From: Patescibacteria group bacterium
Lineage (GTDB): Bacteria > Patescibacteriota > Minisyncoccia > Phycocordibacterales > UBA918
Assembly: GCA_019752815.1 (NCBI GenBank)
Contig: JAIELQ010000015.1
Location: 1-53,286 of the forward strand
Direction of reading: 5' to 3'
Length of the DNA stretch: 53,286 nt
Part shown: piece by piece, positions 762 through 53,286 of the stretch
Layout: every line of letters starts with the position of its first letter
How positions within the stretch are numbered: the stretch's first letter is position 1
Notes under the pieces: model-generated
Told to the model about the DNA's origin: nothing
The model's input: the letters and a program-made list of their open reading frames with translations, nothing else
Databases searched by the model: none
Made by a program: the position numbers and the translations under genes

Positions 762-958
762 TTTGAGCCATCAAACAGAATCGGTCACGAATCACTAAGT
801 AGGTTATTTGCCTTCGGCTCATAACCTACTAAGTGTTCTTGACCACGTCTCAACTGTCGCAAAGCGACATGTTTCTGACTTTCGATTCTGTACGAAAGCT
901 GCGCAGGCAGCTTTCTTTGATGGCAAACAAAAAACCCTAAAAAGGGTTTTTTGTTTTG
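762..958 (-). repeat. tRNA-Thr 3' trailer element: hairpin, split inverted 3'-end copy (881-924), hairpins, direct 3'-end copy (762-783)
   Basis: 22-bp exact direct repeat 762-783 = 955-976; inverted copy TTCGATTCTGT[25 nt hairpin]TTGATGGC. Confidence 0.9.
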
Positions 959-1233
959 AGCCATCAAACAGAATCGAACTGTTGACCTTCGCCTTCGCTT
1001 ACACCTCAGTTTATAAAAAGTAATATCTGAGGACTAGACTGTATATCACACATACTGCATTTACAGTGAAGTGCCCCTTGTCAGTCGTTCGGGCCCCACG
1101 TAGGTGGTGCCACGGTCTTAACCATACTTTGGTCTTTAACCGTTATTCGGGATTCGATGGAAAATTTCTTATCCAAAGGGCAAAGTCATTGCGACTTACC
1201 ATGGCGATGCTCTACCAACTGAGCTATGATGGC
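959..1233 (-). tRNA. trnT: tRNA-Thr(GGU), exons 1198-1233 and 959-995, split by a group I intron
   Basis: Joined exons fold as a full cloverleaf: GCCATCA/TGATGGC acceptor, TCGCC-ATGGTAA-GGCGA anticodon arm, AACAG-TTCGATT-CTGTT T arm. Confidence 0.93.
996..1197 (-). ncRNA. Group I intron (202 nt, no ORF) at tRNA position 36/37
   Basis: Exon ends in U, intron ends in G; P1 GGU|AAGUC-loop-GACUU-U-GCC with U.G at the splice site; P7 GACUG/CAGUC; P9 CCUCAG/CUGAGG. Confidence 0.88.
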
Positions 1234-1345
1234 TTAAATCAAAGGGTGCCTATAGTTTGCCGCGGACACCCTTTGACTTCTAACTCCTGCAGCACACAGG
1301 TTTCGAAGCACGAACATAGTAGCAAACTAAATCTATATCGCAAAA

Positions 1346-1615
1346 TTACTTATTATTCTGCCTTAAAAATTCCTTTAATTCATCTATTTGTCTGAGTATA
1401 TCTACCTTTGCTACTTGCCAATTCCCTTTTGCTATTTCACCCTCATCACCTTGTATAATTTTCTGCACATCTGCAACCACAGTCTCGAGTTGCCCCAATT
1501 TAATCGCAGCAATCCTCACGGCGTTATCTAGTAACCCTTGATCAACTAATGATTGTAATTCTGCAACAGAAACATCCTCAGATAAATCAAACGGTGTAGG
1601 TGGTTTTTCAGACAT
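1346..1615 (-). CDS. Hypothetical protein (89 aa)
   Basis: Clean ORF starting 1 nt after the stop of the upstream DUF2238-like gene. Confidence 0.65.
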   Translation of the reverse strand: MSEKPPTPFDLSEDVSVAELQSLVDQGLLDNAVRIAAIKLGQLETVVADVQKIIQGDEGEIAKGNWQVAKVDILRQIDELKEFLRQNNK

Positions 1616-1616
1616 A

Positions 1617-2222
1617 TTATTTATGTAACCTTCGTACTACAAACAAAATGCCGAGCGCAAGGACCGCTCCGCTGAAGTTAAAAATTAAATCGAGCATGGC
1701 GTTTTCATAGCCACCAACGCCGTTTTCTTCTAGCGTGACCGCAATTAAAAATTCCATAATTTCATTGAGACCACTGATTCCTAATGAAATCATTGCGGCA
1801 GCAAGACCAACCAAGAATACATGTCCGGTGACTTTCAGTGGAACCCGCAGCGTATGATGTGCCATCAGGGCTACCAATCCATAGAGATACGCATGCACTA
1901 CCTGATCGTACTTTAGAATGTAAAAATCTCCGCCATAATCCAAGAAGGGATAGATGCGGTGGGCAAATAATACATGATCTCCAATTTGCACCGCCCCACC
2001 CGCCACGTGCATTAATCCCCAAATAGAGAGAAGCCACAGCATCCAAATTGGAAATTGTGTTGCTCTCAGTGTAGCGAACACACCAGCAAAAATCGCGACA
2101 ATCACTGCCACATAGATAACAAATTCATTATTGAGGTCACGCAAAAAATAGATACCGCCGGCAATTAAATAGACAGCTGAAAATCCGATAATGTACCAGT
2201 GTTGTTTAGATAATGCCGACAT
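1617..2222 (-). CDS. DUF2238/YjdF-like inner membrane protein
   Basis: Multiple TM helices with H..GG, YDQVVH and NEIMEF motifs. Confidence 0.75.
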   Translation of the reverse strand: MSALSKQHWYIIGFSAVYLIAGGIYFLRDLNNEFVIYVAVIVAIFAGVFATLRATQFPIWMLWLLSIWGLMHVAGGAVQIGDHVLFAHRIYPFLDYGGDFYILKYDQVVHAYLYGLVALMAHHTLRVPLKVTGHVFLVGLAAAMISLGISGLNEIMEFLIAVTLEENGVGGYENAMLDLIFNFSGAVLALGILFVVRRLHK

Positions 2223-2263
2223 ATGATTAAAGTGATTGTAATGACATTATTTTATCACGCGAT

Positions 2264-3784
2264 TTAGTAATCGCGGGCCCCCTCACCTCCCAGGCCGTAT
2301 CTCATAAGGGCTTCTTCGCGCGCCTGCTTATGTTCAATAATGGGAACACTTGGCGCATTCAGACTAAACGCGCCATCACTTCGTAACCACCTCTCTTGAT
2401 AGGCTCCTGAAGCATCATAATTTTTTGCTTGTAATTCAGCGTTAAAAATGCGAATTGGTTTAGGGTCGGCACCAACTGACGCTCCCCACTGCCAGCCACC
2501 ATTATTTGATGCTTCATCCAGGTCAATTAACACTGCTCTAAAATATTCCTGTCCCCAACGCCAATCCACACCAAAGTTCTTGGTTAAGATGCTCGCCACA
2601 ATCATGCGCGAGCGATTATGCATCCAACCGGTTTCTGCTAGTTGTTTCATAGCCGCGTCCACAATTGAATATCCAGTTTCTCCTTTCATCCAGGCAAGAA
2701 AACGAGCCTGTGCAGTTTCAGTATCGACCCACTGTATTGTCCCCTGAAACTTCTTTTGAAATTCAGTGTCCATCAAATCAGGACGATGGAATAGTTGGTA
2801 CCGGTAGAACTCGCGCCAGATGAGTTCCGAAATATAGGTTAGTGCCCCCTCACTCACCCGGGTTGAGAACGGGTTATCAAATGATTCGTCAAAGTGTTTT
2901 TGCATCATCTGCATCAACGTGCGGGCAGAGACCAACCCCCAGGCGAGCGCCAGACTCATTTTTGAAGTCTTCCCAGTATAGGCAGTGCGAGTCTCGTCAT
3001 GATTGGCCGCATCTAGTTCTAATGAATCACGGTTTTTCTTATAGGCATCGAGGTCGCCAGATTTTAAGTAGTCTGCAAAACGTTTCAGGGCTTCGGCTTC
3101 GGTAGTGTACCAACCAGCCATGTTTTGTAGAGGTATGAGCTCAGCCAAATCAAGCGTGGTTCCGGCGATAGTAAGTAAACGTTTTTTACTAAAAGTTTCA
3201 AAAATAGCTCCTGTGGTATTAGACAAAAGGTTTGGAAGAGCGGGTATTTCTTTGCTGGAAAGATATGATAATTCCTGAATCGGTTGAAAGGTAGGTTGGG
3301 GTTTATACGTAATAAATCGTGCCCAGACATTTTTCTTAAACGGGGTGAATACACTATATAAATTACCTTCTCCAGAACGAGTGTCTTTAGGAACTGACAA
3401 GGCGTCTTCAAGGACAGTGACGTTTACTCCAGCGTTTTGCAACTTAGTAATTTGTTTGTAGAAATCGATATACACATCATCATTTACAAATACCGTGAGT
3501 TGGTATTTTTTACCTAGTTCAATAAGGTATTGGGCGCCTTTCCCTGTCACAATCGCAAATTGTTCAAACTGTGAAGCAAATTGTGGCAACGCTTCAGAGA
3601 GGAACCAGCGTGACGGGCAACCAAATTGGAAAGCTGGGTCACCAGCCGTCATATAGTCTTCTAGAATAAAGAGTGGGAGGAAGGCAGTTTTATGTTCTAC
3701 TGCATATGATGATGCAGCGAGCAAGGCAGGGTTGTCGGCGAGGCGGAGGTCCCGGCGGGACCAGTAGATGGTGAGTGGGGGCAT
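2264..3784 (-). CDS. phrB: Deoxyribodipyrimidine (CPD) photolyase
   Basis: W.RRDLRL.DNPAL N-terminus; ELIWREFY, TGY.IVDAAM, GWMHNR.RM, D.D.ASNNGGWQW FAD-domain motifs. Confidence 0.95.
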   Translation of the reverse strand: MPPLTIYWSRRDLRLADNPALLAASSYAVEHKTAFLPLFILEDYMTAGDPAFQFGCPSRWFLSEALPQFASQFEQFAIVTGKGAQYLIELGKKYQLTVFVNDDVYIDFYKQITKLQNAGVNVTVLEDALSVPKDTRSGEGNLYSVFTPFKKNVWARFITYKPQPTFQPIQELSYLSSKEIPALPNLLSNTTGAIFETFSKKRLLTIAGTTLDLAELIPLQNMAGWYTTEAEALKRFADYLKSGDLDAYKKNRDSLELDAANHDETRTAYTGKTSKMSLALAWGLVSARTLMQMMQKHFDESFDNPFSTRVSEGALTYISELIWREFYRYQLFHRPDLMDTEFQKKFQGTIQWVDTETAQARFLAWMKGETGYSIVDAAMKQLAETGWMHNRSRMIVASILTKNFGVDWRWGQEYFRAVLIDLDEASNNGGWQWGASVGADPKPIRIFNAELQAKNYDASGAYQERWLRSDGAFSLNAPSVPIIEHKQAREEALMRYGLGGEGARDY

Positions 3785-38661: not shown

Positions 38662-40776
38662 CTATTTTGAAGCGTGTAGTACCGCAGTTGGATCCGCGAC
38701 TGCCTCATCGAGGTCACGCTGTTTCTTGTACGCGTCGTTAATCATCACTCCCTCTTGTTTGAGTAATGCTTCATACTCTTCCCGTTCAAGTGTCTCCACT
38801 TCAGCTAAACGAATAGAAATGTTATCGAGGGCGGTGCGGTATTTGGTCAAAATCTCACGTGCTTTCTCCATTCCGTCGTGAATAATTTTATTTACTTCAT
38901 CATCAATGGCTTTGGCGATTTGTGGTGAGAATCCACGGTCTTCACTCATACCACCACCAAGCATCCGACCCCCCGTTCCCTCGTACGCGATTGGACCGAG
39001 CGTATCGCTCATTCCCCATTTCGTTACCATATCGCGTGCTAGGTTGGCGACTACCTGCAAGTCATTACTTGGACCAGTTGTCAGGTCGTCAAACACCATT
39101 TGTTCAGTGACATACCCCCCGAGTGTCATCGCGATGTCATCGAGGAATTCTTTTTTCGAATGCATCTTGCGGTCTTCATCTGGAAGTTTCAGAGTATATC
39201 CGGCTGCCCGACCACGAGAAATAACAGAAATCTTTTGGACTGGGTCAGCGTACGGCAGGACTGAGGCCACAAGAGCGTGCCCTACTTCGTGGTAGGCAGT
39301 AACTAATTTCTCGCGCTTACTGAGTACATGACTCTTGCGTTCTGGACCGAGCATTACTTTTTCAATCGAGCGAATCAAATCAAATTGACCAACTTTTTTG
39401 CGCAATTCACGGGCAGCCAAAATTGCTCCTTCGTTCATCAGTGAATACAAATCTGCTCCTGAAAATCCTGGGGTTCGTTGCGCAATAATGTCGAGATTTA
39501 CATCCTCTTGGAGTGGCTTCTTGCGAGCATGTACTTCGAGAATTGCCTTGCGGTCATGACGGTCTGGCAAATCAATCGTCACTCGCCGATCAAACCGCCC
39601 CGGACGAAGCAACGCAGGATCTAGCACATCAGGACGGTTGGTCGCCGCCATCACAATTACCTTGGCATTAGGTTCAAACCCATCCATCTCAACGAGAATT
39701 TGGTTAAGGGTTTGTTCTCGTTCGTCGTTTCCGCCACCGACACCGGTGCCACGCACCCGACCCACGGCATCAATTTCATCGACGAAAATAATAGACGGCG
39801 CTGACTTCTTGGCCATTTGGAATAAATCACGCACTCGTGACGCACCCACACCCACAAACATTTCCACGAACTCAGAACCAGAAATACTGAAAAATGGAAC
39901 ACCGGCTTCCCCGGCTACGGCACGGGCGAGCAAGGTCTTCCCCGTTCCGGGTGCGCCCATCATCATCACACCCTTTGGAATCTCTGCTCCGATATCGAGA
40001 AACTTTTTCGGATTCTTAAGGAAGTCGACGATTTCTTCGAGCTCTTGTTTTGCTTCTTTGGCACCAGCTACGTCTTTAAAGGTGACCTTTTTGCTGGAAT
40101 CATTTGGATCAATCATCCGTGCTTTACTACTGCCAAACGACAGAGCCTGCATCCCCGCTCCTTTTACTGAACGAGTTAAAAACCAAATGATAATACCCAG
40201 GAACAAAAGCGGGAACAGAAACGGTGCAAACTGTGATAACCAGTACCCAAAACCAGTTTCGCGCTGCACATCAATGGTGATTGAAGCGAGCTGTTCCGCT
40301 GATACACCGAGATTTGTCAGGGAGTCAGAGACTGAGGCGTCGGTTTCGCGTTTTGCTTCACCTTTGTTGCGCGTTTCATCACGATACGACACTTCAAGCA
40401 TCGCTCCGCGAACGATAATTTCTTTGACTTCGTTATTCTTTACCTGCCCCACTACATCCGAGATAGTGAGTTCTTCTGGAGGAACACTGGTATCAGTGAG
40501 ATACGAAAACGCCATGGTAATAAATACCAACAGGAGTACTGTCGACAACATATTGTTCCAAAAATTGCCTGGACCAACCGGCATGTTTTTACCAACCTTG
40601 CGTAGCTTCTCACCGGCTGAGTCTTTCTTTTTTGTGTTTTGGTCAACTGGCTTTTCCTCAGGAACTTTTGGAGCTTCCACCCCTGGCATCACCTCATTTT
40701 GGGAGGTATTTTCTTCGGGTAATTTGTTTTTTTCTGTTTCTGACATAGTACGGTCATTATACAGAAAACGAGTCAT
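38662..40776 (-). CDS. ftsH: ATP-dependent zinc metalloprotease FtsH (start probably 40746)
   Basis: Two TMs, [27 protein letters not shown] Zn motif. Confidence 0.98.
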
Positions 40777-40861
40777 TTTGCTAATTATTTGACTTGCCCA
40801 GCCCTTGTTACATTTGCAGTAAAATTACAATTATCTGTTTACGGAGTAGCTAGGGCGGGGT

Positions 40862-41326
40862 ATGATGAGCCACACAGACATGAGTAACTACGCCCAAAAC
40901 AAAAAAGCCCATTTTGACTACGAAATTCTCGAAACCTTCGAGGCGGGATTAGTATTGCTCGGAACCGAGGTTAAATCCATCCGAGCCGGCCGGGTCAAGC
41001 TCGACGGAGCACACATTGTAGTTCGAGGCGGTGAAGCCTATTTGGTAAATAGCAGTATTGCCGCCTTCCAGCCCATTAACACCCCCAAAAGCTATGACCC
41101 GGAACGAGTCCGCAAGCTACTCCTTTCCCAAAAACAACTGACCCTGCTCCACCGTCAGACCGAGCAGTCTCATTTGACAGCTATTCCTTTATCGTTGTAT
41201 AGTAAAGGAAGCAAAATTAAGCTCAGTTTAGCAATTGCGCGCGGCAAAAAGAAAGCCGATAAACGCGAAAGTCTAAAGGAGCGCGATGTCAAACGTGACA
41301 TCGACCGTACCTTAAAATCACAATAA
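40862..41326 (+). CDS. smpB: SsrA-binding protein
   Basis: NKKA.FDY.I....EAG.VL.G.EVKSIR, RKLLL, GKKK.DKRE. Confidence 0.97.
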   Translation: MMSHTDMSNYAQNKKAHFDYEILETFEAGLVLLGTEVKSIRAGRVKLDGAHIVVRGGEAYLVNSSIAAFQPINTPKSYDPERVRKLLLSQKQLTLLHRQTEQSHLTAIPLSLYSKGSKIKLSLAIARGKKKADKRESLKERDVKRDIDRTLKSQ

Positions 41327-42314: not shown

Positions 42315-42705
42315 GGGGATGCTAGGCATCGACGGTTAGTCTATCCCGGATGTGCAGTGTCGAACATGGCAACCAATTCGTTAAAAGGTTCCATCTGTAT
42401 TTGCAAACAAAGCAATACCAAGTCCTTACGCTAACGCGTTTGGATTCGCTCCCGCCCTCGCGTAACCGCGATTCGTGCCGGAGTGATGCAGCAGTGTTAA
42501 ACGCCTCATACGGCACTGTTGTAAAATAGCCACGGGGCTGTGGGTAGGTGTGCCGTTGTCGCACCGACTCAAGCTTGTAACAACTCGAGTCACTATTGTT
42601 TTGTCTATTCTATAGATAGTGATTTTAAACCAAAGGATAAACTACGCACTGTAGAAGCATCCGGTATACCTAATTCGGACTCGGGTTCAATTCTCGACAT
42701 CTCCA
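42315..42705 (+). ncRNA. ssrA: tmRNA; tag ANKAIPSPYANAFGFAPALA (42403-42465)
   Basis: 5' GGGGATG pairs with 3' CATCTCC-A (G.U at 3:70); TCGGG-TTCAATT-CTCGA T arm; tag ORF ending ALA-stop; about 1 kb from smpB. Confidence 0.93.
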
Positions 42706-42825
42706 CTGATATAGAAATATATGGAACTTTAGAACTGCTTTATAGCAGTTCTTTTGTTAGTACAACTTCACCCTCCCTAATAGCCATCATTTACATTTTG
42801 AGACTTATGTAATAGTATAAGTTAC

Positions 42826-51054: not shown

Positions 51055-51088
51055 AAAAAAGCCGCATGACCAAAAATAGTCATGCGGC
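51055..51088 (-). terminator. Intrinsic terminator after PurA-like gene
   Basis: GCCGCATGAC/GTCATGCGGC with T6 on minus strand. Confidence 0.75.
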
Positions 51089-51112: not shown

Positions 51113-52519
51113 TCACGCCACCATATGGAGGCGTTTGGTACTCCGTTTGTCGGCAGCAGTCTTGCCGTACGAAGTAATTGTTACCGGAAGGTCAAGCATC
51201 ATGCCAACAAACTCGGCATATGCCTCGCCCGTGTGCGACACCGATTGGTAGACCGGAGTAGCTTTGGTGACAATTTCCCCGAGAAGTTCCTGGTAGGTGA
51301 GATCCTCGAGGTCGGTTTTTGGCTTGAATGATTTGATGAAGACAAAGCCCGGTTCACGGACAGTCTCATCAAGCACCACAGCCAACCGAGCCCGGAGCGA
51401 GAGCTCTCCCTCCCCCAAGCGATAGTGGGTCACGACTTTTTTCTCTGGTAGCGTCGCCCACCGATCGAGGTGCGTGAGCACCACCGCGTCAGTGCCTGCT
51501 GAGACCGTCAGTGCGTACCGGGTTAGTGGCAGATCGAGCCAGCCAACCCGGAATTCACGTTGCCAAACTCCGAAGTGATTGTGGGAATCAGGCAAAGCAG
51601 TCGTGAGCGCCGAGCTTTCGCTCGGGAACGGTCCCGGACCATGCCGGGTACTGTACGCCCGGACGACACCGTACCGGGTAACGGACCCCTGGTACATCAG
51701 TTCACGCAGGAGCGTGTTGGCATTGTCATTGGTAGTCGTGCTCCAGGTGGTGTAGGGATGGAAACCATGCCACTCGTCAATCAAGATACCCTGTGCCCCT
51801 TCGAAAATGAGGGGAGACGTCGCCGATAGGCGTCGCAAGGTAGCCATGGTTCCCAGGGTGCACGAACGCATCAAGGTCACCATCGTTTGGGCAATCAGAC
51901 GCGGCATCGCCGGATCAGTAATCACGCGCAGTTCGTCACGAAGCAAGTTGTTGTGTGACAGAACTGCAAAGTAAGGAGCGAACTCAGCGTACTTCAGAGC
52001 CTGCTGCTTGTGTAGTTTCTGCGTCAAGACAGCAACGTCACGCAGGTCAACCGCATACACAGCCTGCTCCGGAAATGCAAGCATGTCAGCCATTGTTTCA
52101 CCGATGCCCATGCCCACACTTCCGTGGCGACCATCTCCACGCAATGCTTCGCGCAGGCGGTTGGCGGCCTTCTGAAACGGCGTAACGGTGAGAGCTGCCT
52201 CATCGACCGTCACCAGTGACAGAGGACTCCCAACCCCGAGTCGCATCAGACCTTCGGCTTCACGCATCAAAGCGTAAGGATCGAAGAGTACGAAGCGTGA
52301 GAGGTAGGTGCGGGTTCCCGGAACCAGCGTGCCACTGCCGAATTGAGAAAACGTGTGGTGACGACCATCGGTTGTGTGCACATTGTGCGCCGCTTGGGCC
52401 CCGCCGTTGAAGCGAACCACAGTGGCACCATTGATCTGCCGTGCCAAGAAGTCGACCGTGGTCCCCTTCCCCGCATCACCAAACCCCAGGTCAGTTACGA
52501 TTGAAGCGAACATGTTCAT
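51113..52519 (-). CDS. Divergent adenylosuccinate-synthetase-like protein
   Basis: GDAGKG, RFNGGAQAAH, FEGAQG, TRHG.GPFP, GWLD present; canonical TTGRxRR loop absent; AAGGAG SD. Confidence 0.88.
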   Translation of the reverse strand: MNMFASIVTDLGFGDAGKGTTVDFLARQINGATVVRFNGGAQAAHNVHTTDGRHHTFSQFGSGTLVPGTRTYLSRFVLFDPYALMREAEGLMRLGVGSPLSLVTVDEAALTVTPFQKAANRLREALRGDGRHGSVGMGIGETMADMLAFPEQAVYAVDLRDVAVLTQKLHKQQALKYAEFAPYFAVLSHNNLLRDELRVITDPAMPRLIAQTMVTLMRSCTLGTMATLRRLSATSPLIFEGAQGILIDEWHGFHPYTTWSTTTNDNANTLLRELMYQGSVTRYGVVRAYSTRHGPGPFPSESSALTTALPDSHNHFGVWQREFRVGWLDLPLTRYALTVSAGTDAVVLTHLDRWATLPEKKVVTHYRLGEGELSLRARLAVVLDETVREPGFVFIKSFKPKTDLEDLTYQELLGEIVTKATPVYQSVSHTGEAYAEFVGMMLDLPVTITSYGKTAADKRSTKRLHMVA

Positions 52520-52547: not shown

Positions 52548-52578
52548 AACGGCGGCATCACTTCGTGATGCCGCCGTT
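52548..52578 (-). terminator. Terminator-like hairpin between vWA-like and PurA-like genes
   Basis: AACGGCGGCATCAC/GTGATGCCGCCGTT followed by TTCTT on minus strand. Confidence 0.65.
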
Positions 52579-52602: not shown

Positions 52603-53286
52603 TCAGACTCGAGACACCCCACCGGTACCGCCTGACCGTCGGGAAAGTTTCCCGCCAGACTGGCCAGCTTTCGGCACGATGGATGAACCACCGACCGGCA
52701 CCAGCGCGTTGCGAACCGTTGCAGCAGCGGACCCAGAGAGTCCGATATCAGCCACGACCCGGTCAGCGTCGTAGGCGTTTTCCATCATGTGCACGATGCC
52801 TGCGATGACTTCGCACACCAGACTGGAATCTTCGACCGAGATCAGGCGTTCACCGAGAAGCTTCCGCCACCGTTCATGGATGGCGGCGTCGTTCCGGTAG
52901 CTGCCATCCTCGGCAAAGAGGTGGAAGATTTCCCAGCGCTCGCTTGCACGAGCGATGAGACTTTCGACGGTCTCGTCTTCGGCACCCTTGATACCAAAGA
53001 TGGCCGAGACCTCAGCGGCCGACACCGTAGGCCAGGGAGCTTCGTCACCCATGGTGAAGAAGTAGCCCTTCTTGCCCCGGCGCTCGAAGGCGTCGGTCGC
53101 GGTGTGGTCAGCGGCAAAGCGGTACGCCAAGGCGTACGACTCCTTCGACTGACCGCCGCCACCACCTTCGAGGATGATGCTCCGCAAGTGTTCGTCGAAC
53201 GCGTTGCTCGATTCGAACTGACCAACCTGAAACGGGTACCGGTCAGTGTTCGCGTCGCCCACCGCACCAACGAGAACCTGCGGGTC
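52603..53286 (-). CDS. vWA-like protein, 3' part (start outside window)
   Basis: In-frame to window edge: DPQVLVGAVGDA..DRYPFQVGQFES, EGGGGGQ..ESY.LA, KKGYFFT.GDE. Confidence 0.7.
   Translation of the reverse strand, partial: DPQVLVGAVGDANTDRYPFQVGQFESSNAFDEHLRSIILEGGGGGQSKESYALAYRFAADHTATDAFERRGKKGYFFTMGDEAPWPTVSAAEVSAIFGIKGAEDETVESLIARASERWEIFHLFAEDGSYRNDAAIHERWRKLLGERLISVEDSSLVCEVIAGIVHMMENAYDADRVVADIGLSGSAAATVRNALVPVGGSSIVPKAGQSGGKLSRRSGGTGGVSRV

Follow-up and report, generated by a model that had tools for sequence, protein, structure and literature searches.

A PurA-like enzyme family with a retained GTP core, a von Willebrand factor A partner and a probable link to ADP-ribose

We analyzed a 53,286 nt stretch of DNA, called here the window, that corresponds to contig JAIELQ010000015.1 of a Patescibacteria group bacterium (assembly GCA_019752815.1; positions 1–53,286, forward strand) and that carries near one end, on the minus strand, a gene for a protein with the fold of adenylosuccinate synthetase (AdSS, or PurA). 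Our results make it likely that this PurA-like protein represents an uncharacterized, deep branch of the PurA superfamily that has kept the GTP core, carries out a chemistry other than that of IMP and aspartate together with a von Willebrand factor A (vWA) partner, and is linked to ADP-ribose. The gene is the last of a horizontally mobile cassette, composed of genes for a J-domain pseudokinase, a vWA protein and the PurA-like enzyme. Throughout the text, L-numbers (L001, etc.) designate related loci and P-numbers designate database representatives or cassette proteins.

The PurA-Like Enzyme Keeps the GTP Core and Has Rebuilt Substrate Pockets

The window protein matched the profile PF00709 (Adenylsucc_synt) with 206.7 bits (E 6.6e-61) along profile positions 2–410 of 416. 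Its AlphaFold2 (AF2) model (predicted local distance difference test, pLDDT, 84.3; predicted template modeling score, pTM, 0.86) could be superimposed on solved AdSS structures from E. coli, mouse and plant with template modeling (TM) scores of 0.72–0.81, and the Foldseek E-value was 1.5e-26, with TMq of 0.73–0.75 and TMt of 0.79–0.81 to 1IWE, 1CG3 and 1DJ2. The P-loop includes Asp15 and Lys18, which correspond to the catalytic Asp13 and to Lys16 of the E. coli enzyme, and is accompanied by the motifs GGAQAAH (residues 39–45, with H45 as the catalytic His) and FEGAQG (residues 239–244). By its profile match, its fold, and its P-loop and His motifs, the window protein belongs to the PurA superfamily.

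A first-pass annotation of this DNA, made from the sequence alone, had noted that the catalytic Asp and His and the EGAQG motif are kept, that the aspartate-binding loop is replaced, and that TRVG and TKLD have become TRHG and THLD. The translation bears out all of it, with GFGDAGKG, GGAQAAH and FEGAQG in place and TRHG at residues 291–294, and the changes are family-wide in a 91-member alignment. The residue counts that follow were taken from this alignment, which also contained six canonical PurAs, among them that of E. coli, and are given in E. coli numbering. Gly12, Asp13 and Lys16 are invariant (91/91), as are Gln224, Gly416 and the equivalents of His41 (91/91) and of the guanine-specifying Asp333 (91/91); Gly15 and Gly17 are each present in 90 of the 91 members, and Thr239, Arg306 and Ser414 are also retained, the kept set as a whole being found in 85–91 members. 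The changed positions include Thr301, which is Gln in all 91 members, Arg303, deleted in all 91, Thr300, which is Trp in 87, Arg305, which is Phe in 88 and neighbors the retained Arg306, Val273, which is His in 91, and Lys331, which is replaced by His, Cys or Asn. Additional changes not seen in the first-pass annotation are Asn38 to Gln, Ser240 to Trp and Ile126 to His (91/91 each), Thr129 to Cys or Val, Arg131 to Met, and Arg143 to His, Phe, Tyr or Leu.

We take Thr300, Thr301, Arg303 and Arg305 of E. coli AdSS to be the residues that hold aspartate (or hadacidin), and Asn38, Thr129, Thr239 and Arg143 from the other subunit to be those that hold the 5′-phosphate of IMP; the titles of Protein Data Bank (PDB) entries for complexes of the R143L, K16Q and R303L mutants agree with these roles. 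Three of the four IMP 5′-phosphate ligands are altered in the family (Asn38, Thr129 and Arg143), and Thr239 is kept. The deviations are family-wide rules, and neither chance nor sequencing noise. The extra substitutions (N38Q, T129C/V, those at R143 and others) mean that the IMP 5′-phosphate site has been rebuilt along with the aspartate site. Judging from the kept and changed residues, the family has thus preserved guanine recognition and the machinery for phosphotransfer but remodeled the pockets for both substrates. Among the residues that are new and invariant in the family, the aromatic and His residues W259, H293, W319 and F323 take the place of polar and Arg ligands.

The Family Is Separate From Housekeeping PurA and From PurZ

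The scores of the window protein with the PurA equivalog models NF002223 (165.7 bits versus a cut-off of 402) and TIGR00184 (128.6 versus 395.6), with the equivalog NF010355 (126 versus 445) and with the PurZ model NF038379 (35.5 versus 300) were all far under the respective thresholds. In a maximum-likelihood tree whose canonical set included seven Patescibacteria PurAs, a long branch with a Shimodaira-Hasegawa-like approximate likelihood ratio test (SH-aLRT) support of 100 separated the PurA-like sequences from the canonical ones. Likewise, the AF2 model was more poorly superimposed on PurZ and PurZ0 (TMq 0.50–0.56; 0.54 for PurZ from S-2L and 0.50 for PurZ0) than on AdSS. The first-pass annotation had suggested both a phylogeny and a structure model as checks, and they set the family apart from canonical PurA and give it a PurA fold (TM 0.72–0.81, against 0.50–0.56 for PurZ and PurZ0).

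Canonical PurA (528–617 bits) and PurA-like (187–221 bits) genes occurred together in four of the five free-living genomes searched, namely Embleya, Actinacidiphila, Streptomyces and one Caldilineaceae metagenome-assembled genome (MAG); the fifth, a Chloroflexia MAG, carried a PurA-like gene and a canonical gene split in two. In the host genome of the window (1.04 Mb, 99.97% complete) the PurA-like gene is the sole member of PF00709, and purB was not found with profile TIGR00928, with which 14 of 14 controls were positive. Among 301 Patescibacteria genomes, 49 contained a canonical-scoring PurA and 38 of these 49 also had purB, which was present in none of the three genomes having only a PurA-like-scoring gene. 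Scoring and the tree together can tell both types apart, because the low-scoring gene of genome G234, which adjoins purB, was placed in the canonical clade. A more divergent PurA-fold gene from Patescibacteria (L122, G020:C3), 29% identical to the window protein and with 103 bits to PF00709, joined the PurA-like clade through a long branch; no vWA or pseudokinase neighbor of this gene was detectable by tblastn.

These comparisons bear on whether the window protein could be a divergent but genuine AdSS that would supply a host of reduced genome with AMP made from salvaged IMP. Although it is the only PF00709 protein of its host, retains the catalytic residues and is annotated in databases as adenylosuccinate synthase, we rejected this role as highly improbable: the aspartate ligands are replaced or deleted in 87–91 of the 91 members, the scores are far under the equivalog cut-offs, the host has no purB for completing the path from IMP to AMP, canonical PurA is present beside the PurA-like gene in other genomes, and the family forms a separate clade. 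An identity as PurZ or PurZ0 was also rejected, from the score with NF038379 and the lower structural similarity. The central proposal of the first-pass annotation, that of a GTP-dependent enzyme with a PurA fold that would act on substrates other than IMP and L-aspartate and would not serve de novo purine synthesis, is in turn supported by the invariant catalytic and guanine residues, the replaced aspartate loop, the low equivalog scores, the separate clade, the presence of a canonical PurA beside it in five free-living genomes and the absence of purB from the host.

The family shares with PurA (EC 6.3.4.4; PF00709; E. coli structures 1ADE and 1CG0–1CG4) the fold, the P-loop, Asp13, His41, Gln224, the guanine-specifying Asp333 and the Ser414/Gly416 motif and, judging from these residues, probably also the first half-reaction, a GTP-dependent phosphorylation of a substrate oxygen. 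It differs from PurA in the changes T300W, T301Q and R305F and the deletion of R303, in the alteration of three of the four IMP-phosphate ligands, including the trans-subunit Arg143, in its near-obligate pairing with a vWA gene, in not being linked to purB, and in being an accessory and mobile gene that coexists with a true PurA. Similarly to PurZ and PurZ0, which participate in Z-genome synthesis (7ODX, 6FM1, 7VF6), it is a re-purposed and phage-borne branch of the PurA superfamily; however, PurZ keeps aspartate as a substrate, whereas the PurA-like family has lost the aspartate loop and has a vWA protein and a pseudokinase as gene partners.

Public databases label the family as adenylosuccinate synthase, adenylosuccinate synthetase or “PurA-like”. 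The RefSeq copies from mycobacteriophages (NC_011272, NC_054718, NC_067270 and others) are named “2-aminooxy adenylosuccinate synthetase”, a PurZ-type label that looks like the propagation of an annotation error, as the family scores under the threshold of the PurZ model and is devoid of the aspartate loop.

The PurA-Like Gene Is the Last of a Cassette With a vWA Protein and a J-Domain Pseudokinase

Tblastn comparisons revealed that a gene for a vWA protein of ~330 amino acids (aa) lies directly upstream of the PurA-like gene in 87 of 89 related loci, and that it is preceded by a gene for a J-domain protein of ~340–390 aa in 75 of the 89. The vWA protein had no sequence match in Pfam, including its vWA and TerY models, or in PDB. 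Nevertheless, it carries the DVTGSM...GDE motifs of a metal ion-dependent adhesion site (MIDAS), its full-length model has a vWA/integrin I-like fold (pLDDT 88.9), and Foldseek matched it with a probability of 1.00 to integrin I-domains, SpaC and the vWA domain of Ku80. The protein starts with Met-Gly in 77 of 77 distinct locus proteins, in 124 of 129 full-length database representatives and in both phages checked, and it ends in Arg followed by Leu, Ile, Val, Phe or Met in 60 of 80 locus proteins and in 73 of the 129 representatives. The C-terminal tail, of ~25 aa, had a pLDDT <50 in the AF2 model of the protein from L001, and its sequence varies from locus to locus. One of the database representatives (P0185, 581 aa) contains an intein-like insert of ~250 aa between KKGY and FIIGDE, in the third MIDAS loop; inteins usually occupy functionally critical sites.

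The J-domain protein has an N-terminal J-domain with an HPD motif, with the DnaJ Pfam model matching 23 of 42 members, and a protein-kinase fold (profile E 2e-12 to CK2), with the Pkinase model matching 21 of the 42. It is probably a pseudokinase, because the catalytic Asp of the HRD motif is replaced by Ala in the family consensus, HGAVxPxH. A variant of the cassette occurs in three loci from the candidate phyla radiation (CPR; L007, L014, and L020), with an extra upstream gene for a product of ~390–420 aa without family match (P0125) and a longer vWA protein, of ~480 aa, with an inserted domain that gives a weak DUF2135 signal.

The spacer between the vWA and PurA-like genes of the window contains a hairpin followed by a U-tract (Table 1), which is kept as a structure, with different stem sequences, in 14 related loci (L001, L002, L004, L006–L008, L012, L013, L015, L027, L030, L043, L068, and L073). 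This hairpin may be an internal terminator or attenuator setting the ratio of the vWA and PurA-like proteins.

The Cassette Is Associated With NrtR Genes and NrtR-Type Palindromes

A gene of the NrtR type (Nudix plus NrtR winged-helix domains) adjoins the cassette in 51 of 91 loci, which range from Streptomyces to the CPR and a gammaproteobacterium, and in two plasmid loci of the 91 there is a plain NUDIX gene instead. This was the only recurrent neighbor family among 130 nearest-neighbor open reading frames (ORFs) from 36 loci (NUDIX, 18; NrtR_WHD, 16; the rest, ≤2). Additionally, 33 of 73 loci have the palindrome TAGTGT-N7-ACACTA (≤2 mismatches) in the 300 nt that precede the cassette, with 69 copies in total and a density of 3.15 per kb versus 0.03 per kb elsewhere, that is, ~100-fold higher. 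These 19-bp palindromes are mostly arranged two or three in tandem, with one of them overlapping a TTGACA box, and they also occur at Chloroflexota loci without an adjacent NrtR gene. NrtR operators are 21-bp palindromes with a GT-N7-AC core, from which the repressor is released by ADP-ribose (Rodionov et al., 2008; PMC2330246), and TAGTGT-N7-ACACTA fits this core. The cassette loci resemble the described NrtR regulons in the adjacent NrtR-type gene and in the tandem palindromes with a GT-N7-AC core upstream, and differ from them in gene content: the described regulons hold NAD synthesis or salvage and pentose genes, and no PurA-like, vWA or pseudokinase genes were reported in them (PMC2330246).

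Genes for NadA, NAMPT and ADP-ribosylglycohydrolase adjoin the cassette in some CPR loci. NAD-salvage genes were rejected as general neighbors of the cassette, as they are not recurrent beyond NrtR and the two phages checked lack NAMPT/NAPRTase. In the host of the window, a single perfect palindrome, AGTGTA-N6-TACACT (contig 4), is located inside a long repetitive ORF for a surface protein and was taken as a chance occurrence.

The Cassette Has Moved Horizontally Among Phyla, Plasmids and Phages

A scan of species-representative genomes retrieved more than 520 loci, and the best 80 of them come from CPR lineages (Saccharibacteria, Kaiserbacteria, Woesebacteria, and WWE3), many Chloroflexota, actinomycetes (Streptomyces, Embleya, Actinomadura, Thermomonospora, and Streptacidiphilus), and Myxococcota, Bacteroidota, Terriglobales, Binatia and Gammaproteobacteria. 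On megaplasmids of Rhodococcus opacus/jostii and on a Tsukamurella plasmid the trio of genes is also found, followed in these plasmids by a NUDIX gene. The trio occurs as well in ~200 mycobacteriophages of the genus Bixzunavirus (cluster C1), where the genes are annotated as kinase, hypothetical and “PurA-like”; the pair of vWA and PurA-like genes is carried by Rhizobium phages. With a profile of the vWA protein, 1,076 clusters (50% identity) were retrieved from 1.84 billion representatives at E ≤ 1e-30. Just upstream of the pair, Rhizobium phage RHph_TM2_3B (L107, positions 896–3232) encodes a HAD hydrolase, a ComF-like PRTase_3 phosphoribosyltransferase and a NUDIX protein, a gene set reminiscent of the nucleoside-like metabolite clusters predicted for Ter-associated systems.

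The tree mixes phyla and phages. The window protein is included in a 14-member CPR clade, whose sister clade is formed by actinomycetes. Other CPR copies cluster with the mycobacteriophage one, and a WWE3 copy falls among Chloroflexota. The PurA-like type is rare in Patescibacteria (~3–4 of the 301 genomes), and among these genomes it was not found in any sampled relative from the order or class of the host. We therefore rejected a CPR-specific adaptation, given this rarity, the abundance of the family elsewhere and the mixing of phyla in the tree. Here the first-pass annotation, which had set the enzyme in the frame of CPR bacteria typically lacking de novo purine synthesis, has to be amended: the family is not a CPR peculiarity, and ~49 of the 301 Patescibacteria genomes carry a normal PurA. 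It had also viewed the gene alone, whereas the meaning of the gene comes from its partners, the vWA protein, the J-domain pseudokinase and NrtR.

The Window Copy Is Incomplete and Lies in an Island 3′ of ssrA

The window is an incomplete, and poor, exemplar of the cassette because the contig end cuts it, leaving the enzyme gene and two thirds of the vWA gene (Table 1). The remaining vWA fragment is 85% identical to residues 112–336 of the L001 protein (338 aa) and ends in ...GVSRV; the part with the MIDAS motif and the N-terminus falls beyond the contig end. The PurA-like ORF has 468 aa when counted from the first ATG, and the database gene calls for the identical protein begin two codons later (MFASIV, 466 aa, start at 52513); the latter is likely the true start because it is at a better distance from the AAGGAG Shine-Dalgarno sequence.

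Table 1. Coordinates of the cassette features and of the tmRNA gene in the window.
Feature	Position	Strand	Remarks
vWA gene, 3′ two thirds (227 codons)	52603..53286	-	Broken by contig end
GC-rich 14-bp hairpin with downstream TTTTCTT, within the 83 nt that separate the vWA and PurA-like genes	52548..52578	-	
PurA-like (AdSS-fold) coding sequence	51113..52519	-	ORF and translation, PF00709, AF2 model
P-loop GFGDAGKG, residues 12–19	52463..52486	-	Translation
Rebuilt “aspartate loop” NHFGVWQREFRVGWLD, residues 314–329	51533..51580	-	Stands where canonical GxTTGRxRRxGWLD would be
THLD guanine-specificity motif (canonical TKLD), residues 349–352	51464..51475	-	Asp retained, Lys lost
Intrinsic-terminator-like hairpin and T-run	51061..51088	-	25 nt past the PurA-like stop codon
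Transfer-messenger RNA (tmRNA) gene, tag ANKAIPSPYANAFGFAPALA	42315–42708	+	smpB and ftsH beside it, 38662–41326

The GC content of the cassette is 0.58 versus 0.44 for the rest of the window, and its GC content at third codon positions (GC3) is 0.63–0.71 versus 0.35–0.50 for 14 other long ORFs. GC drops from 0.52–0.64 to 0.30–0.48 at ~51100, and this step coincides with the terminator hairpin at the end of the cassette. Such a sharp step, the deviating GC3, the end of the contig inside the cassette and the absence of the remaining cassette genes from the bin are what would be expected if the GC-rich last 2.2 kb of the contig were an assembly or binning chimera and the gene were foreign to the host genome. 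We consider this very unlikely because relatives share both the GC contrast and the gene order on the tmRNA side: cassettes that are 65–85% identical show the same contrast, of +11 to +18 GC points, inside contigs of 63–145 kb (L001, L002, and L083) and on a 13-kb contig (L073), and the order cassette ... tmRNA-smpB-ftsH is common to the window, L002 and L083, with L001 sharing the tmRNA match. In low-GC CPR hosts (window, L001, L002, L027, L030, L073, and L083) the cassette is 11–18 GC points above its flanks, with a GC3 of 0.49–0.71, versus only ~+2 points in high-GC hosts. The contrast persists between copies that are only 65% identical at the same chromosomal position, and a simple recent transfer followed by amelioration fails to explain this persistence.

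The cassette is thereby placed downstream of the 3′ end of ssrA, in a variable region of the kind that classically harbors islands. The spacer between cassette and tmRNA varies from ~2.6 to 8.4 kb. The region that extends from the 3′ end of the tmRNA gene as far as the contig end, of ~10.6 kb, differs in length and content among the window, L001, L002 and L083 and behaves as a variable island region. We found no att-type repeat of the tmRNA 3′ end in 42.3–53.3 kb and saw no integrase between the tmRNA 3′ end and the contig end.

Discussion

We propose that the PurA-like enzyme transfers phosphate from GTP to an oxygen atom of its substrate, as its conserved residues suggest, and that a nitrogen nucleophile would then displace the phosphate, with a substrate pair other than IMP and aspartate. 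The enzyme would work as a pair with the vWA protein, and the cassette would be switched on when ADP-ribose, a product of NAD cleavage, accumulates. Because of this presumed induction by ADP-ribose, the cassette would serve an NAD/ADP-ribose-linked nucleotide turnover or a conflict response, and not AMP biosynthesis. The loss of the trans-subunit Arg143 further allows the speculation that the vWA protein, or its MIDAS metal, completes the active site in place of the second PurA subunit.

Several observations weigh against this proposal. The chemistry of the family is read from conserved residues only, and the roles of these residues in the E. coli enzyme are those that we assumed, with indirect support here from titles of PDB entries. 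The hairpin and U-tract between the vWA and PurA-like genes could uncouple their expression. Neither an NrtR gene (PF21906) nor a pseudokinase gene was found in the host assembly, and the cassette promoter is beyond the contig end, so that the regulatory link for the window is drawn from its relatives; presumably, the NrtR gene of the host belongs to the portion of the cassette that the assembly lacks. The motif TAGTGT-N7-ACACTA is missing from the actinomycete and plasmid loci and, finally, the two phages checked do not carry a NAMPT/NAPRTase gene, so the connection with NAD is not universal.

The data do not rank strongly the three more specific roles that we contemplated, which are the rebuilding of NAD+, an effector function in conflict and a ligation to the vWA terminus. 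The first of them, which we hold as a tentative possibility, is a specific version of our preferred reading: GTP would phosphorylate the anomeric hydroxyl of ADP-ribose (or of a ribosyl phosphate), and the phosphate would be displaced by nicotinamide or nicotinate, held by stacking in the new Trp/His/Phe pocket, to yield NAD+, with induction by ADP-ribose via NrtR. The adjacency of NrtR genes and the NrtR-type operators, the NadA, NAMPT and ADP-ribosylglycohydrolase genes next to some CPR cassettes, the presence of the module in phages and the invariant W259, H293, W319 and F323 in place of polar or Arg ligands are all consistent with this reaction, whose form, an O-phosphorylation followed by displacement by nitrogen, is shared with PurA chemistry. 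However, NAD genes other than NrtR are not recurrent neighbors, the two phages checked lack NAMPT/NAPRTase, the reaction leaves no role for the vWA protein or the pseudokinase, and the retained Asp13 and Gln224 point to a lactam-type (purine-like) acceptor and not to a sugar hydroxyl. In 2024, phages were reportedly found to reconstitute NAD+ by two pathways, NARP1, with Adps and Namat, and NARP2, with NAMPT and NMNAT, and the proposed enzyme would be a one-enzyme analog of the NARP1 route. A possible likeness lies in phage- and host-borne genes that respond to the products of NAD cleavage, but the protein families are unrelated to those of the cassette, and the two module-bearing phages contain no gene of the NAMPT/NAPRTase family.

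It is more doubtful that the cassette is a conflict system, either anti-phage or counter-defense, in which the vWA protein and the J-domain pseudokinase would sense an invader or stress and the PurA-like enzyme would be the effector, making a signaling or toxic nucleotide or depleting one. The patchy spread across phyla, plasmids and phages, suggestive of horizontal transfer, the rarity in Patescibacteria and absence from the order and class of the host among the sampled genomes, and the location of a GC-rich island in a variable region 3′ of the tmRNA gene fit with such a role, as does an architecture of vWA and kinase that recalls the vWA ternary and TerY-P systems (PMC7159879). Conversely, PADLOC-DB 2.0 contained no match for the PurA-like enzyme or the vWA protein, and we rejected a known defense system on these grounds; the pseudokinase matched generic kinase models only. 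Likewise, there are no recurrent defense genes nearby (130 neighbor ORFs from 36 loci), the kinase is devoid of the catalytic Asp, and both the conserved chromosomal position in four related Kaiserbacteria-type genomes and the control by a repressor of metabolism are more suggestive of a metabolic role. The TerY-P triad and the vWA ternary conflict systems combine a vWA protein with a Ser/Thr kinase and a PP2C phosphatase (Kaur et al., 2020; PMC7159879), and adenylosuccinate is not mentioned in that work. The cassette resembles them in that a MIDAS vWA gene adjoins a gene with a eukaryote-type kinase fold in a mobile and patchy unit; it differs in the kinase, which lacks the catalytic Asp and has a J-domain, and in the third component, which is a PurA-fold enzyme, and no PP2C phosphatase was present among the recurrent neighbors (130 ORFs from 36 loci).

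We rate as unlikely a third role, that of a protein-nucleotide ligase, in which a terminus of the vWA protein would take the place of aspartate and become covalently joined to a GTP-activated nucleotide. The terminus could be the amine of the N-terminal Gly after removal of Met, or the tethered C-terminal tail ending in Arg-Leu. This would suit the Met-Gly start of the vWA protein (77 of 77 loci, 124 of 129 representatives and both phages), its Arg-hydrophobic end (60 of 80 loci and 73 of 129 representatives) after a variable tail of ~25 aa with low pLDDT, the near-obligate pairing of both genes (87 of 89) and the Trp-Gln surface that stands in for the aspartate pocket. On the other hand, the first 10 residues of the vWA protein have a pLDDT of ~82 in the AF2 model and lead into packed helices, and do not form a free tail, and Gly is common at position 2 of proteins. 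We know of no precedent for a protein ligase with a PurA fold. The fuller version, a ligase that joins a nucleotide of the purine or ADP-ribose type to the terminus of its own vWA partner after induction triggered by ADP-ribose, is slightly less probable; if true, it would represent a previously unknown post-translational modification common to bacteria and their large phages. As argued above, an assembly artifact is unlikely, and a true AdSS role even more so.

A full-text literature search found no paper describing this PurA-like branch or the cassette, and none joining NrtR with adenylosuccinate or Patescibacteria with adenylosuccinate synthetase; phage genome announcements give only the label “PurA-like”. 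To our knowledge, the textbook enzyme PurA has a single known function, and PurZ is its only known re-purposed branch, which led to the discovery of Z-genome biosynthesis. The PurA-like family would be a second, and larger, re-purposed branch, in which the GTP-driven chemistry has been kept and both substrate pockets discarded. This branch is common to ultra-small bacteria, soil actinomycetes, megaplasmids and ~200 mycobacteriophages, and is nearly always accompanied by the vWA protein. The system occurs in cultured and tractable organisms, such as Rhodococcus jostii RHA1 and strains of Streptomyces and Embleya, as well as in Bxz1-type phages of M. smegmatis mc2 155. NAD cleavage is a central theme of bacterial immunity. 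Solving the reaction of the PurA-like enzyme would reveal a new activity in the metabolism of nucleotides or NAD, and may explain how cells and phages respond to the cleavage of NAD.

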